64,000 nucleotides of DNA from a virus, in the IMG/VR virus record IMGVR_UViG_3300032782_000001, positions 52,404 to 116,403 of that record. One strand, given 5' to 3'. A program made the translations under genes and the position numbers. Below are positions 28 through 7,199 of this stretch, in pieces. The notes beneath the pieces are model-generated. The model worked only from the letters and a program-made list of their open reading frames with translations, was not told the origin of the DNA and searched no databases. Position 1 is the stretch's first letter. Every line of letters starts with the position of its first letter.

Positions 28-240
28 ATGGAGCTGACGTGTGTTAAGCGATTCCCTGATGGTACACGCTGCGGTGCAAAAGCCACCCTCGCGTATTTGA
101 CGACTGAAGGCAAACGGTTCGTCTATCGATGCGAGCAACATCCCATCAACAACAAGAAGCGGGCTTGGAATCAAGAATATATGCAGTGCCGCAAGATTCC
201 AATCGAAGAGGCTATCATCATGGAAGTCATGACTGCATGA
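28..240 (+). CDS. small Cys-rich protein, VMES-tail family
   Basis: 70 aa ORF ending ...EAIIMEVMTA; Cys pairs; stop TGA overlaps next ATG (ATGA). Confidence 0.5.
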   Translation: MELTCVKRFPDGTRCGAKATLAYLTTEGKRFVYRCEQHPINNKKRAWNQEYMQCRKIPIEEAIIMEVMTA

Positions 241-446
241 GTCCGGTCGAAGATTTCGAATGCGTCGTGAATGTGGAGGGAAGGGCCGCTTGCGACAAGA
301 TTGTCAGCGCTGTCCTGTTCCCCACTGACGGTTCCGAGGATCCGTGGCCCGTATGTAAGGACCACATAGATATTAATCTGTACGGCTACGGCCGGCGTGT
401 GGGGACAATTGAAGAGTTGATCATATTTGAAGTAATGAACTCATGA
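237..446 (+). CDS. small protein, VMES-tail family
   Basis: starts at ATG overlapping previous stop; ends ...EELIIFEVMNS; Cys/His rich. Confidence 0.5.
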   Translation: MSPVEDFECVVNVEGRAACDKIVSAVLFPTDGSEDPWPVCKDHIDINLYGYGRRVGTIEELIIFEVMNS

Positions 447-802
447 CTCGGACGATGCACGGGAAGAATCTCAGTGATGATGGGTTTGACTCATACATTC
501 AGACCCTTCTCCGTGCAAAATCCCAACCTGACCGAATGCGAACGCTGGAATGGATTATTGAAATCCAGACTTCACGAATACGTGGTATTATCATCCGGTT
601 CACGTTATACTTTATTCTGAACATTTGTGGGATCTGGTATCTTGGAACCAATTTCGTCAAAGAACCATGCTGGGGTTCTGGAACCGAGTTCGCATTCCTG
701 GCCATTTTCGGAGGTGTCGTCCTCGTCCATGACTTGTCCAAAATTCGGAACATCAGGAAATCATTGCGGGAAGCAATCGTGGCTTCCGTGATGGAATCAT
801 GA
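443..802 (+). CDS. small membrane protein, VMES-tail family
   Basis: 119 aa; two hydrophobic segments (IIRFTLYFILNICGIWYLG, FAFLAIFGGVVLV); ends ...EAIVASVMES. Confidence 0.55.
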   Translation: MTRTMHGKNLSDDGFDSYIQTLLRAKSQPDRMRTLEWIIEIQTSRIRGIIIRFTLYFILNICGIWYLGTNFVKEPCWGSGTEFAFLAIFGGVVLVHDLSKIRNIRKSLREAIVASVMES

Positions 803-805
803 TTC

Positions 806-1027
806 ATGACTGTCCTTTGTACTGAGCCTCGGCTTCCAGGAGAGACTCCGAGTCACGACTGGCAGAAAAAACGTGATTGGCACGGGGACTGGACTGGAAA
901 ATGGATTTGTTCTAATTGCAAGGAAATTCGAACTAACTGTAAACATGCGAATGGCGATTGGACGGGTCTCTTCATGGAAGATTGTCAAGAGCCCGAATGT
1001 GTAGTTCGTAGTGTGATGGAATCATGA
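806..1027 (+). CDS. small Cys-rich protein, VMES-tail family (CxEPECVV subgroup)
   Basis: 73 aa; ends ...CQEPECVVRSVMES; ATGA overlap with next gene. Confidence 0.55.
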   Translation: MTVLCTEPRLPGETPSHDWQKKRDWHGDWTGKWICSNCKEIRTNCKHANGDWTGLFMEDCQEPECVVRSVMES

Positions 1028-1275
1028 GGACTCTCGATATGGACATCGTCACGCAACGAGAGCACGTAAAAACTTGGTGTGTTATTCGGGTGGATGAGAA
1101 AACCGACGCATATCCTTCTAGGTATGAAGTATTTGGCCTCGGAGATGGACAGACGGCGGAGAGACTAAGGGAAACTGGCTATGCCGAAGAAGTCCTGATC
1201 GGTTTTCCGGATGAAGAATCGGCTACGGCAGTGGCAGAAAAACTAAACATGATCACCGAAATCATGGAATCATGA
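1024..1275 (+). CDS. small protein, VMES-tail family
   Basis: 83 aa; ends ...NMITEIMES; ATGA overlap. Confidence 0.5.
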   Translation: MRTLDMDIVTQREHVKTWCVIRVDEKTDAYPSRYEVFGLGDGQTAERLRETGYAEEVLIGFPDEESATAVAEKLNMITEIMES

Positions 1276-1481
1276 GTTTTGTCCGATGCAGCCACACTCG
1301 GACCGAGAAGGTATTCGAGGGGACTTTCTCTAATGTTGTCCATATCGAACGTTATCAATGCGAAGCTAATGCCATCGTATTCTTCACTCGTGGTGCTTTC
1401 TGCAAAGATCACGAACCGGAATCACTGGATGGTCAAATTTCCTTACAAGAATATGTCGTTCTCGAAGTCATGCGTTCATAA
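1272..1481 (+). CDS. small Cys-rich protein, VMES-tail family
   Basis: 69 aa; ends ...QEYVVLEVMRS. Confidence 0.5.
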   Translation: MSFVRCSHTRTEKVFEGTFSNVVHIERYQCEANAIVFFTRGAFCKDHEPESLDGQISLQEYVVLEVMRS

Positions 1482-1535
1482 GTTTGGCGTTGACGCCGGT
1501 ACAATAGGAAGCCACCCCATTCCCCACGGAGAATC

Positions 1536-2063
1536 ATGAGCATCTCGCATCTCATCGAGCAGAACGCGCAGCAGGATCATTCCAAGCCGGCTTGGAAGCC
1601 CGAATATCCGGCAGTCGGTTACCTCATCGCTACGGTCAAGGATGACCGCACCGAGATCGTCGAGGTCATGGCTTGGGATGAAGAGTATCCCGATATGCCC
1701 AATCGGGATCTTCTCAAGTACCCGAATCACTACGCCGTGCAGCTGTGCAAGAGCACGCACCGTCCGTTCCGGTACCACCGATTCTTCATTGGCACCATCC
1801 TGGCCAATGGCAAGTTCGTTTTCTCTGTGGCGCCGCGCGTCGATGACTGGAAGTCCGGATCTCCCAAGGTCGATTCTGGGTCGTGGGATGCCCTCCACAA
1901 GCTCCTCGAAGCGGCTGAGTCGTGGCAAGGTGGGGACGCATCGTTCCAGACCGATGGCTACGTCGAACGGTCTTCGGGCCCGCCTCAAACCTCTGGATTC
2001 CGAAAGACTGGAAAGACTGAGCGTGCTCGAGCTCGAGGCAAGGCCAAGCCCAAGTCGGACTAG
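1536..2063 (+). CDS. hypothetical protein
   Basis: 175 aa ORF; GGAG 8 nt upstream; no family tail (ends KPKSD). Confidence 0.5.
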   Translation: MSISHLIEQNAQQDHSKPAWKPEYPAVGYLIATVKDDRTEIVEVMAWDEEYPDMPNRDLLKYPNHYAVQLCKSTHRPFRYHRFFIGTILANGKFVFSVAPRVDDWKSGSPKVDSGSWDALHKLLEAAESWQGGDASFQTDGYVERSSGPPQTSGFRKTGKTERARARGKAKPKSD

Positions 2064-5532: not shown

Positions 5533-5756
5533 ACAGTTTTCTTCGAGATCCCAATTCTCCACCTCACCATTGGAAGCGTGTTCCAGGTGATTGGGGTCGA
5601 TGGAAATGTGAAAAATGTGAGTCTCTTTACCCGGGTTCACAGAATCCGCATCCTGATCCAAATGCGGACACTCCAGATCCTTACATGAAGTCCTGGTGTG
5701 GAGGTAAATTCTTGAGTTGCGACGAGATTGTAGTCTGGGCAGTCCAAGAAGAATGA
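5529..5756 (+). CDS. small Cys-rich protein
   Basis: 75 aa from ATGA overlap; CEKCES motif. Confidence 0.4.
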   Translation: MNSFLRDPNSPPHHWKRVPGDWGRWKCEKCESLYPGSQNPHPDPNADTPDPYMKSWCGGKFLSCDEIVVWAVQEE

Positions 5757-5962
5757 GAATTACCTGCGAATGGGTAGTAGCTGACTTGACATTTCGTTGT
5801 CCTGAGGACGCCGTAATTGGAATAGTCGGATCCTTTCCTGGTGGGACGATTAGGGAAGTTTACTGTCAGGCTCATTACGAATGTGTGGTCGGTATTCTCG
5901 ACAGCTGTTTGGAGACTATGTCTGTAGGTGAGTTTTTGGTTCGAGAAATTCATGATTCTTGA
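5717..5962 (+). CDS. small Cys-rich protein (tail variant EIHDS)
   Basis: 81 aa ORF; ends ...FLVREIHDS. Confidence 0.4.
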   Translation: MRRDCSLGSPRRMRITCEWVVADLTFRCPEDAVIGIVGSFPGGTIREVYCQAHYECVVGILDSCLETMSVGEFLVREIHDS

Positions 5963-5982
5963 TTTCGGCGTAAAATGGGTCT

Positions 5983-6207
5983 GTGATTCCGTCCCATAAA
6001 TGCAATAATTCAGTTCAATTCGGATGGGATGCCGCACTTTGCGGAAGTCTCGCAATTCGAGTCTTCAGGGACCTTCGTCCGCATTCCACTAACGTGAAAT
6101 ATCTATGCGAACGTTGTTTCAAAGAAGAGCGTGAGAGGCTTCAAAAAGCTGGAATGACCGAAATGTCTTTAGAAGAAGACGTCGTTTATGGGGTCATGGA
6201 ATCATGA
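5983..6207 (+). CDS. small Cys-rich protein, VMES-tail family
   Basis: 74 aa; ends ...EEDVVYGVMES; ATGA overlap. Confidence 0.5.
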   Translation: MIPSHKCNNSVQFGWDAALCGSLAIRVFRDLRPHSTNVKYLCERCFKEERERLQKAGMTEMSLEEDVVYGVMES

Positions 6208-6509
6208 CTGTCCCGGATGTTCGAAACCAGACGGAAGTAGAAGCAGGATCCAATTACCATAAGTCTTGGATATACGTCCTACACTCATCTCTTGATCGCG
6301 TTAGTGATAGTCCTTTCCGATCTATTTGTCCTGCTTGTGATCGAGGACTCTTACTAGTCAAGCGAGATCACACACTAGAATACTGTTTTCGGATCGACAA
6401 TTGTTCCTTGTGCGGTCAAATCGTTGTTTACGAAGATGACAATATTGGTGGAATCAGCCTCCACCCATCCCTCAATGAATGTTTGGTTGCGGAGGTAATG
6501 GATTCATGA
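6204..6509 (+). CDS. small Cys-rich protein, VMES-tail family
   Basis: 101 aa; CPAC...CSLC; ends ...ECLVAEVMDS. Confidence 0.5.
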   Translation: MTVPDVRNQTEVEAGSNYHKSWIYVLHSSLDRVSDSPFRSICPACDRGLLLVKRDHTLEYCFRIDNCSLCGQIVVYEDDNIGGISLHPSLNECLVAEVMDS

Positions 6510-6790
6510 ACGACGGTTTCATTTATGAGTTCATTGCAAAGGAACGAGAGATTATCAGGAAAACACAGTTAGAAGTCAGGATTGTAGGAACACTTTCTAT
6601 TTGTGCAGGAATAGCTGGCGTTGTTGGACATGCCACCATTCGCATCTATGGAGTGGAATGGTGGAGAGGAATATTCACTGTTGTATGCATTGTGTTGTGT
6701 CCTCATTTCGCTAAATGGTGGTGGGATGAGCGGAACCACGTTAAGCAATTGGAGAAGAATTTGTTGGTGTTTGAGGTCATGGAATCATGA
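6506..6790 (+). CDS. small membrane protein, VMES-tail family
   Basis: 94 aa from ATGA overlap; two TM-like segments; ends ...NLLVFEVMES. Confidence 0.5.
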   Translation: MNDGFIYEFIAKEREIIRKTQLEVRIVGTLSICAGIAGVVGHATIRIYGVEWWRGIFTVVCIVLCPHFAKWWWDERNHVKQLEKNLLVFEVMES

Positions 6791-6975
6791 TCGAACACCA
6801 GTGGCTTTGGAAGAGAATGAGTAAGACGGGGAGTGATAATATCTGGGTTTGTGAAAGATGCGGAACAGAATTTCCCGTAGGTACTAGTGGGTATAGGCCT
6901 GAAGTCTATATACCAACGTCCCAAACTTCGGAAGACTGTGACGTAGAAATGATTCGTCAAGTGATGGAATCATGA
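6787..6975 (+). CDS. small zinc-ribbon protein, VMES-tail family
   Basis: 62 aa; CERCG; ends ...VEMIRQVMES. Confidence 0.5.
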   Translation: MIEHQWLWKRMSKTGSDNIWVCERCGTEFPVGTSGYRPEVYIPTSQTSEDCDVEMIRQVMES

Positions 6976-7199
6976 AACTCACGAAATCCGAAATCAAGGC
7001 TCTTCTCCAGCTTTGGGAAGCTGGAATCCATAATGCTGTCGCTCCCAGCTCCAATGAGCGTCGGTTCTTCCAATCCCTCCGGCAAAAAGGGTATGCCATT
7101 ACTTTCAGTGTAAACAGAAATTTCCGAATCACTGAGAATGGAATTCTTCGAATCGAAGATCCGGCCAAACTCTTCGTGAAGGAAGTAATGGAATCATGA
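6972..7199 (+). CDS. small protein, VMES-tail family
   Basis: 75 aa; ends ...AKLFVKEVMES; ATGA overlap. Confidence 0.5.
   Translation: MKLTKSEIKALLQLWEAGIHNAVAPSSNERRFFQSLRQKGYAITFSVNRNFRITENGILRIEDPAKLFVKEVMES

Follow-up and report, generated by a model that had tools for sequence, protein, structure and literature searches.

A shared C-terminal tail as the probable source of a recurrent stop/start junction among the small genes of a huge phage

The window analysed here, a 64-kb piece of the 436,316-bp metagenomic contig of an uncultivated phage, carries a run of small genes in which the end of one gene overlaps the start of the next within a 12-base sequence that hardly varies, and the question that this locus raises is whether the junction is kept as a nucleotide sequence, as a device of translation, or as the end of a protein. 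The source is a huge phage, as the size of the contig and its tRNA, translation, and vault genes indicate: the window holds 44 transfer RNA (tRNA) genes, a group I intron, EF-Tu, RtcB, a nicotinate phosphoribosyltransferase (NAPRTase), an M16 peptidase, and a major-vault-protein (MVP) homologue. The 12-mer, ATGGAATCATGA, is present in 15 exact copies, all on the + strand and none on the - strand, against 0.01 on average and at most 1 in dinucleotide-preserving shuffles. Twelve copies lie inside positions 237-7199 (starts 791, 1016, 1264, 2625, 4254, 4942, 5148, 5521, 6196, 6779, 6964, and 7188) and three outside (9944, 21411, and 36345), and each of the 15 closes, in frame, an open reading frame (ORF) of at least about 60 amino acids (aa), reading Met-Glu-Ser-stop. 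The 12-mer is very probably the coding footprint of a C-terminal protein tail combined with an ordinary gene overlap, reading ATGGA(A/G)TCATGA, and it is nearly invariant because Met has one codon, the overlap forces TCA plus TGA, and only the Glu wobble is free. The recurrence of the junction is real, whereas an extra signal at the nucleotide level is not needed to account for its near-invariance.

An earlier note on this DNA had described the junction as chaining the small genes of 237-7199, and the 12 exact copies found there bear this out. Specifically, all 16 of the ATG positions that it cited are ATGA overlaps opening ORFs of 54-155 aa, 11 of them with the exact 12-mer and five with variants (237, ATGACTGCATGA; 443, ATGAACTCATGA; 2866, ATGAATTCATGA; 4486, ATGACCGCATGA; 6506, ATGGATTCATGA). 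The GTGA variants reported at 3332 and 13255 are both genuine and are joined by five others (14904, 15158, 34508, 34714, and 36162); in four of these seven (13255, 15158, 34508, and 36162) an ATG follows directly in a TGATG overlap of 1 nucleotide (nt) (TCGTGATG or GCGTGATG), and the real start there may be this -1 overlap rather than the GTG. The ATGA overlaps cited at pncB/44179 and 59096 also exist, while the one attributed to the VWA gene (- strand, 23918) is a true overlap whose letters are GTGA and not ATGA. Five ends of the form RTGA (R = A or G) have no gene start at the overlap, namely two exact copies (791-802 and 21411-21422) and three further ends (3593, 10608, and 63453), where the overlapping ATG or GTG opens 2-26 codons only and the next gene begins 1-55 nt later. 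Lastly, the motif is present in 237-7199 but is not confined to this interval, as tailed ORFs occur across the window and the array extends about 1.7 kb upstream of it.

At the protein level, a scan of the whole window for ORFs ending in [V/I]-M-x-[S/A] returns 45 on the + strand and one on the - strand; these 46 are a lower bound and make up a large share of the crude gene set of about 150 ORFs, and degenerate endings (EIHEL, VQEE, EIHDS, and VMDT) are found on a few further ORFs. The consensus was drawn from 81 tails in five sequence sets from four phage contigs, which cover the window with its upstream flank as well as three loci of related phages; it spans about 12 residues, [C/h]-[D/E/N]-[E/L]-x-[I/V/L]-[V/I]-x-x-[V/I]-M-E-S-COOH, in which position -7 is V or I in 77 of the 81 tails, though it lies outside the search pattern. 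The hydrophobic positions -8, -7, -4, and -3 follow an i, i+1, i+4, i+5 spacing and therefore form the signature of an amphipathic helix. Of these tails, 63% have the Glu and 93% the terminal Ser, Met is now and then replaced by Leu, and the chain stops exactly one residue past Glu in almost all the tails examined. The tail is helical in the AlphaFold models of two zinc-binding types, A2 (CCCH type; gene 2633..2869; predicted local distance difference test, pLDDT, 84; helix 67-77) and A3 (H..CxxC..C type, 61 sequences; pLDDT 72.7; helix 51-61, from the invariant Cys). The tail is thus modelled as an amphipathic C-terminal helix that is predicted to begin often at a zinc-ligand Cys, and it is this shared tail, not the overlap, that is the unusual part of the junction.

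The codons used at the tail separate the peptide from the nucleotides. In the window, ends overlapped by the next start have TCA, TCG, GCA, or GCG as last codon and TGA as stop, whereas ends without an overlapping start keep Ser as TCT, TCC, AGT, TCG, or TCA, followed by TGA, TAA, or TAG; relatives add AGC to the terminal Ser codons. In a larger pool of 108 tails from seven sequence sets, all 56 coupled ends carry TCR or GCR plus TGA, whereas the uncoupled ones spread their Ser over TCG (14), TCA (10), TCT (9), TCC (8), AGT (5), and AGC (4) and their stops over TGA (28), TAA (17), and TAG (7). The peptide is selected as a peptide, and the overlap dictates only its codons (TCR plus TGA). The overlap itself is also under selection, because RTGA ends far exceed the codon and stop background: they number 31 of 47 against an expected fraction of 0.147 (p = 2e-15), in a window where TCA and TCR account for 13% and 30% of Ser codons and TGA for 49% of non-family stops, and an ORF of 54 aa or more starts at 26 of the 31.

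The wobble position of Glu weighs against this account. At the ATGA junctions of the window the codon is GAA in 13 of 13 cases, compared with GAA 6 and GAG 12 at other tails (p = 1.4e-4; background GAA 64%), and a nucleotide-level effect is on this ground improbable rather than fully excluded; the relatives do not reproduce the bias (3/8 vs 9/22, p = 1). If the junction were primarily a nucleic-acid signal, with the peptide secondary to a ribosome-tethering RNA of the Shine-Dalgarno (SD) or termination upstream ribosome-binding site (TURBS) kind, a ribonuclease site, or a DNA microhomology for cassette shuffling, this GAA uniformity would find an explanation, as would the copies in which E-V-M is written GAGGTGATG, an extended SD, and the start regions that are more paired than controls. 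Such a signal is quite improbable, however, as the 12-mer is always in frame at ORF ends and never on the other strand, Ser is encoded by both AGY and TCN, Val or Ile by six codons, Met is at times Leu, the GAA bias is missing in the relatives, most junctions are without SD-like pairing, and the region matches no Rfam family. Three narrower candidates were rejected. An SD-spacing rule (GGAG if the next start is downstream, GGAA if it overlaps) reaches p = 1.4e-4 in the window and p = 1 in the relatives, with junctions of gap 0-3 nt mixed; an SD inside the tail (GAG GTG ATG as an extended SD) is not general, Glu being at -5 in a minority of tails and the Val codon being mostly GTC; and GANTC as a methylation or restriction motif, which arises from Glu or Asp before a TCN Ser codon and of which the window holds 438 (a count only), is not formed with AGY Ser or a non-acidic residue at -2.

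The overlaps that accompany the tail are the ordinary part of the junction. Consecutive small genes are linked through stop and start codons that overlap by 4 nt, as the earlier note proposed: among the 45 + strand tailed genes, the next start lies at -4 in 26 (19 ATGA and seven GTGA) and after a gap of 0-3 nt in seven more, the remainder having gaps of 10-20 nt (three), gaps above 30 nt (five), or no or no clear following gene (four), and the array holds 17 consecutive-type junctions at -4 (16 ATGA and the GTGA at 3332). Independent pipeline gene calls on four loci of this and related phages also have -4 as the commonest junction class (50 of 152 co-directional junctions, with 11 of 152 at -1). 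The downstream partners are real genes; most bear the same tail, several are identical to database proteins, and the pipeline calls agree at most junctions. The four-base overlap is the commonest overlap in prokaryotes and phages. The comparison with other phages that the earlier note called for, made on crude ORF sets, puts the density of -4 overlaps at 2.8 per kb for the array (1-7500) and 0.94 per kb for the window as a whole, as against 0.50 per kb for viral loci unrelated to it, so that such overlaps are common in phages generally and the 1-7500 array stands at the high end. About 40% of the co-directional pipeline junctions here are at -4 or -1, whereas in a survey of 720 genomes (PMC6728339) the share of overlapping pairs was about 15% for typical prokaryotes and reached about 30% in Aquificae. 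Termination-reinitiation at ATGA and TGATG pairs has been demonstrated in E. coli and Haloferax for 13 of 14 pairs (Huber et al. 2019, PMC6728339), in systems that share with this one the co-directional -4/-1 overlaps, an SD that is often weak or embedded in the upstream gene, and long runs.

Coupling of the same kind appears plausible here from the sequence, because most junction starts have a weak SD and poorly accessible start regions. The median anti-SD pairing at overlap starts is -3.65 kcal/mol, against -3.1 kcal/mol at random positions, and most have an upstream GGA only; start-region accessibility (-12..+3) is 0.33, against 0.43 at controls (p = 0.002). Independent SD sites, which the earlier note saw as the counter-evidence to coupling, are weaker than -6 kcal/mol at 19 of the 26 overlap starts, whereas 3-7 junctions (6506, 13255, 15158, and others) have a good SD and could initiate independently; to this point against coupling is added that the energies assume an anti-SD from which that of the host may differ. 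Promoter-like and terminator-like sites in the array show no enrichment over shuffles. The coupling mechanism is a known one and nothing new, and neither obligatory dependence nor equal stoichiometry follows from the sequence.

Since the tail ends where the next gene begins, it could also act as a nascent peptide, modulating from inside the ribosome termination or recycling for reinitiation at the overlapping start. About 12 conserved residues ending at a stop have the size of tunnel-acting peptides, a start lies within 3 nt after 33 of the 45 tails, and amino-acid-dependent termination-reinitiation is reported in eukaryotes (PMC3923131); this role is nonetheless very improbable, given that about one fifth of the tails have no close following gene and are equally well conserved, that both the i, i+1, i+4, i+5 spacing and the confidently modelled AlphaFold helices speak for a folded helix, and that ATGA overlaps serve genes without a tail, pncB among them, just as well. 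Both the nascent-peptide and the nucleic-acid explanations are disfavoured because tails are kept without a downstream partner and synonymous variation is free.

The earlier note had put the overlap first, as the primary constraint that imposes obligatory coupling and stoichiometric co-expression and that makes Ser the last residue. The 26 RTGA ends that open a substantial ORF are in keeping with this, as is TCA at 17 of 26 coupled ends against its 13% background. The causality is nevertheless reversed as regards the terminal Ser, which persists with other codons and all three stops where nothing overlaps: in the window and the upstream segment it is kept at all but one non-overlapped end (the exception being a regex false positive), and in the relatives at nearly all of them, with every Ser codon and the three stops. 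Moreover, the motif reaches 12 residues upstream, beyond what an overlap explains, the - strand gene 11681-11977 retains its tail, as do genes that precede gaps of 33-55 nt or tRNAs, and coupling alone does not give stoichiometry, so that the overlap as prime cause is highly improbable.

The proteins that carry the tail have little else in common. Once the 12-aa tails are trimmed, 44 of the 46 proteins are without a BLASTP match to another member at E < 0.01, and they fall into 45 components; this all-against-all comparison rejects a recently expanded tandem paralogue array. Recent tandem duplication or gene conversion among paralogues (concerted evolution), although suggested by clustered, co-oriented genes of similar size, by 12 of the 15 exact copies lying in one 7-kb array with uniform GAA, and by the fresh 30-nt repeat at 3812-3873, which attests that duplication does occur here, is hardly credible when similarity is undetectable outside the last 12 residues in 44 of 46 proteins, the codons directly 5' of the 12-mer vary (GTC, GTG, GTA, GTT, ATC, and ATT), flanking third-codon positions have no excess identity between neighbours, and phages of GC 0.37-0.65 write the same tail in other codons.

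The carriers span 60-310 aa in the window and relatives (up to 310 aa in the relatives) and include zinc-binding, membrane-like, and helical proteins. At least three Cys, in C..C...C..H or H..CxxC...C patterns, are present in 38 of the 46 members, and two recognisable zinc-binding patterns occur: in A2 the ligand columns that do not vary are C6/C27/C47 plus His, and in A3 they are H4/C22/C25/C51. Other carriers are membrane-like (443-802 and 6506-6790) or Cys-free (6972-7199 and 9198-9467). The A2 and A3 models consist of beta-hairpins and the terminal helix and, together with these Cys patterns, may recall zinc-ribbon and treble-clef-like zinc fingers; fold searches gave no significant match, and the best viral one, Pfam DUF7455 of actinophages, has a probability of 0.93 but E = 0.28. 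Searches of Pfam-A, PHROGs v4, NCBIfam, and PDB sequences returned no match at the curated cut-off, the best being a generic zinc-ribbon at E > 1e-3; megablast of 1-8000 against GenBank phages, tblastn of one family member against phages, and a related-locus search with protein P0038 in viral and genome collections returned none, word-indexed homologue searches found the source contig and close relatives only, and a literature search on the motif or on tagged multigene families in huge phages found nothing relevant. A tail shared by dozens of otherwise unrelated ORFans is undescribed.

The tail is conserved well beyond this contig. It recurs with different codons in L001-3, L005, L045, L046-49, L055, L057, L060, L065, L067, L084, and L102, loci with GC contents of 0.37-0.65 on contigs of 63-436 kb (up to 427 kb among the relatives). 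The counts, whose ranges reflect differing search patterns, are 19-20 tails in 20 kb of L001 (GC 0.49; repeated by L002 and L003), 11 in 13.7 kb of L065 (427-kb contig), eight in 10 kb of L060 (193-kb contig), 6-7, three, and two in L045, L084, and L102 (393-kb contig), 14-18 in 20 kb of L046 (GC 0.65), and 8-11 in 20 kb of L048 (GC 0.56). By comparison, 38 unrelated viral loci (about 380 kb) contain essentially no tails, and 47 loci seeded by a chance EVMES* match alone contain eight in 370 kb. An exhaustive profile search for the H..CxxC..C subfamily (gene 6787..6975) yields 180 cluster representatives, nearly all of 56-92 aa and aligned through their own C-terminus, and nearly all of the 60 retrieved end in ...VMES. 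A single DNA pattern for VRQVMES-stop is absent from 185,579 bacterial and archaeal species, one genome each, and from the viral collection as well. The junction as a means of coupling is ordinary, and the conservation of the tail across large phages of very different base composition is its noteworthy part; the tail is a simple sequence marker by which this phage clade could be recognised in metagenomes.

The best explanation has two layers, both of which the sequence shows: a protein-level tail borne by at least 46 ORFs whose bodies are not detectably similar, and a head-to-tail packing of small genes by standard ATGA, GTGA, or TGATG overlaps, the overlap fixing TCA plus TGA. Ribosomes that finish one gene would reinitiate on the next, and long runs would be translated from few initiation sites. 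Less certainly, the tail may be a recognition or docking element, a C-terminal address for one partner such as a hub protein, a protease, a chaperone, or a compartment. A shared docking or addressing helix is favoured, with less certainty, over a merely structural one because the chain ends one residue past Glu, the polar terminal Glu and Ser are conserved, and the bodies are unrelated; core packing is unlikely to hold these two polar residues in place. Two observations tell against this role: a ligand Cys anchors the helix of the zinc-binding carriers, whose models make it look integral to the fold, so that tag and conserved structural helix are not told apart there, and none of the 20 larger window proteins scanned contains a PDZ, TPR, or tail-specific-protease (S41) domain.

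Encapsulin cargo-loading peptides, microcompartment encapsulation helices, ssrA-type C-degrons, and the EEVD tails of Hsp70/90 are C-terminal addressing tags. The present tail resembles them as a short conserved peptide, borne by many unrelated bodies, whose distance from the free carboxylate is fixed, and the microcompartment peptides also in its amphipathic-helix character; the same short motif on unrelated bodies is what characterises C-terminal sorting and cargo tag systems. It differs from them in being phage-encoded, in marking a large share of the genes of a region, and in its sequence, which matches none of the known consensuses of encapsulin cargo-loading peptides, PEP-CTERM, LPXTG, and ssrA, with no transmembrane-plus-basic segment, LGIGSLK-like run, or LAA end. 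In grouping numerous small accessory genes of one orientation within a large viral genome, these arrays recall poxvirus genomic accordions, the multigene families of African swine fever virus, the repeat families of giant viruses, and the early host-takeover clusters of phages such as SPO1 and T4; in those families the members show recognisable homology over their length, whereas here the last 12 or so residues alone are shared. It is conceivable, though rather unlikely, that the tail is a phage-encoded addressing tag by which a clade of large phages marks much of its stock of small accessory proteins for one reader and a common fate. If so, this fate might be loading into the capsid or into a shell of the MVP homologue, timed degradation, or docking to a hub, and the junction would be the genomic trace of the tag and perhaps also a standard boundary for the gain and loss of tagged cassettes. 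The vault-cargo idea is weakened by two MVP-carrying huge phages (GC 0.24-0.32) that have no tails in about 40 kb around each of their MVP genes. Small proteins of no assigned function make up most of a huge-phage genome, and a common tail would offer one experimental handle on many of them.

The chained run, on the + strand throughout, opens in the window with a small Cys-rich gene (28..240; tail ...IIMEVMTA; ending GCATGA, with an ATGA overlap with the next gene at 237), a small CCCH-type gene (237..446; ...IIFEVMNS; ATGA overlap 443), and a 119-aa hydrophobic, membrane-like protein (443..802; ...IVASVMES; exact 12-mer 791-802), at the end of which the overlapping ATG (799) opens 8 codons only and the next gene starts at 806. 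This is a Cys/His-rich gene (806..1027; ...CVVRSVMES; exact 12-mer 1016-1027; ATGA overlap 1024), followed by an 83-aa gene with one Cys (1024..1275, with one pipeline call putting its start at 1039; ...MITEIMES; exact 12-mer 1264-1275; overlap 1272) and by a CCCH-type gene (1272..1481; ...VVLEVMRS) that ends in TCA TAA without overlap, the next gene lying 54 nt on. A gene of 148-188 aa (2070..2636, starting at the GTG of 2070 or the ATG of 2190; ...IVMRVMES; exact 12-mer 2625-2636; overlap 2633) leads into three CCCH-type genes: the AlphaFold-modelled one (2633..2869; ...IVAEVMNS; overlap 2866), one with a degenerate tail (2866..3111; ...VTWEIHEL; GTGA overlap 3108), and one ending TCGTGA (3108..3335; ...IVNEVMRS; GTGA overlap 3332). 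The next tailed gene (3332..3595; ...IVSIVMES) ends in GAATCGTGA, where the GTG opens 17 codons only and the next gene lies 55 nt on. That gene, of the HxW..CxxCG..C type (3651..3953; ...LIVQKIMES), ends in GAG TCT TGA with the next ATG 3 nt on, and contains a 30-nt tandem duplication (3812-3873, + strand; 2.1 copies, 96% identical) that repeats the peptide VSVLDGAYMN and seems to have arisen in frame very recently.

The run continues with a Cys-rich gene (3957..4265; ...IVMEIMES; exact 12-mer 4254-4265; overlap 4262), a CCCH-type gene ending GCATGA (4262..4489; ...IVSEIMTA; overlap 4486), a 155-aa two-module Cys-rich gene (4486..4953; ...IIAAVMES; exact 12-mer 4942-4953; overlap 4950), and a 7-Cys gene (4950..5159; ...IVADIMES; exact 12-mer 5148-5159) that overlaps, at 5156, the start of a hydrophobic ORF of 54 aa (5156-5320). 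An 8-Cys gene with an approximate start (5218..5532; ...KIVETIMES; exact 12-mer 5521-5532; overlap 5529) precedes two genes with degenerate tails (5529..5756, ...VVWAVQEE, ATGA overlap 5753; 5753..5962, ...FLVREIHDS), a Cys-rich gene (5983..6207; ...VVYGVMES; exact 12-mer 6196-6207; overlap 6204), and a 6-Cys gene (6204..6509; ...LVAEVMDS) that ends in ATGGATTCATGA and overlaps the next at 6506, where, alone among the junctions of the array, the SD site is strong (GGAGGT, -10.8 kcal/mol). The last members are a 94-aa hydrophobic, membrane-like protein (6506..6790; ...LLVFEVMES; exact 12-mer 6779-6790; overlap 6787), a 62-aa HxW..CxxCG..DCD..VMES gene (6787..6975; exact 12-mer 6964-6975; overlap 6972), and a 75-aa Cys-free protein (6972..7199; ...LFVKEVMES; exact 12-mer 7188-7199; overlap 7196), and a 101-aa gene without tail (7196..7501) closes the run.

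Ten further tailed genes lie on the + strand in 9198..15605 (9198-9467, Cys-free; 9767-9955, with the exact 12-mer at 9944; 10281-10610; 10612-10830; 12445-12765; 12767-13258; 14713-14907; 14904-15161; 15161-15388; and 15390-15605), with ATGA, GTGA, or TGATG junctions or gaps of 1-33 nt. Among them stands the sole - strand tailed gene (11681..11977; ...CVVRFVMRS, TCT TAG), which converges on a + strand gene and, without a downstream partner, has kept its tail nonetheless. On the + strand follow 17924-18166, 20562-20909, and 21192-21422 (exact 12-mer at 21411, with the next start 1 nt past that stop), a second chained run (34072-34272, 34269-34511, 34511-34717, 34714-34959, 35953-36165, and 36165-36356, with the exact 12-mer at 36345), and an isolated HxW..CxxCG..DCD..VMES gene (42571..42801) that ends in GAG TCG TAA 34 nt 5' of pncB. 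Four more are scattered on the + strand of the tRNA region (48249-48524, VMAS; 53211-53429, VMQS, TAG; 63216-63455, VMES; and 63510-63962, IMNS, TAA).

A locus identical to the window, L004, shows the small-gene array beginning about 1.7 kb upstream of window position 1. It is preceded by a divergent region (L004 1-1130, that is, 1.7-2.8 kb upstream of the window start) in which L004 353-850 holds - strand genes, and the first + strand ORF with a tail runs from about L004 1136; L004 1-1130 is a likely promoter region for the small-gene run, although it holds no convincing sigma-70-type site. Interspersed among the small-gene runs are genes for a CYTH-domain protein (7902-8447, -), a PLD-like (PLDc_2) protein (10864-11490, +), an NT5C nucleotidase (22497-23141, -), and a VWA-domain protein (23915-24778, -). 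The RtcB RNA ligase (16789-17997), an adjacent pair of collagen triple-helix repeat proteins (36585-39500, 971 aa, and 39538-40521, 327 aa), and the nicotinate phosphoribosyltransferase (pncB; 42836-44182) are on the + strand. The tRNA array (45088-62762) comprises the 44 genes called by ARAGORN, all on the + strand and including four with a CAT anticodon, six for Arg, and five for Leu; Rfam adds candidates at 47452-47519, 58807-58887, and 59947-60027, and small ORFs, part of them VMES-tailed, are interspersed. The group I intron (45647-45877, +; full-length match to RF00028, 76.6 bits) lies between tRNA-Gln (45320-45393) and the ORF 45941-46483, outside every ARAGORN tRNA. EF-Tu (49184-50365, +), the GIY-YIG endonuclease just 3' of it (50434-51330), and the M16 (insulinase-type) peptidase (54375-55643, +) are also in this region. 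Lastly, the homologue of the eukaryotic MVP (30600-33206, -; 868 aa; MVP_shoulder 4e-29, Vault_3 1e-10) is 44-45% identical to ORFs of the uncultured phages LR756501.1 (735-kb) and LR756500.1 (462-kb) and is also found in the related phage L001.

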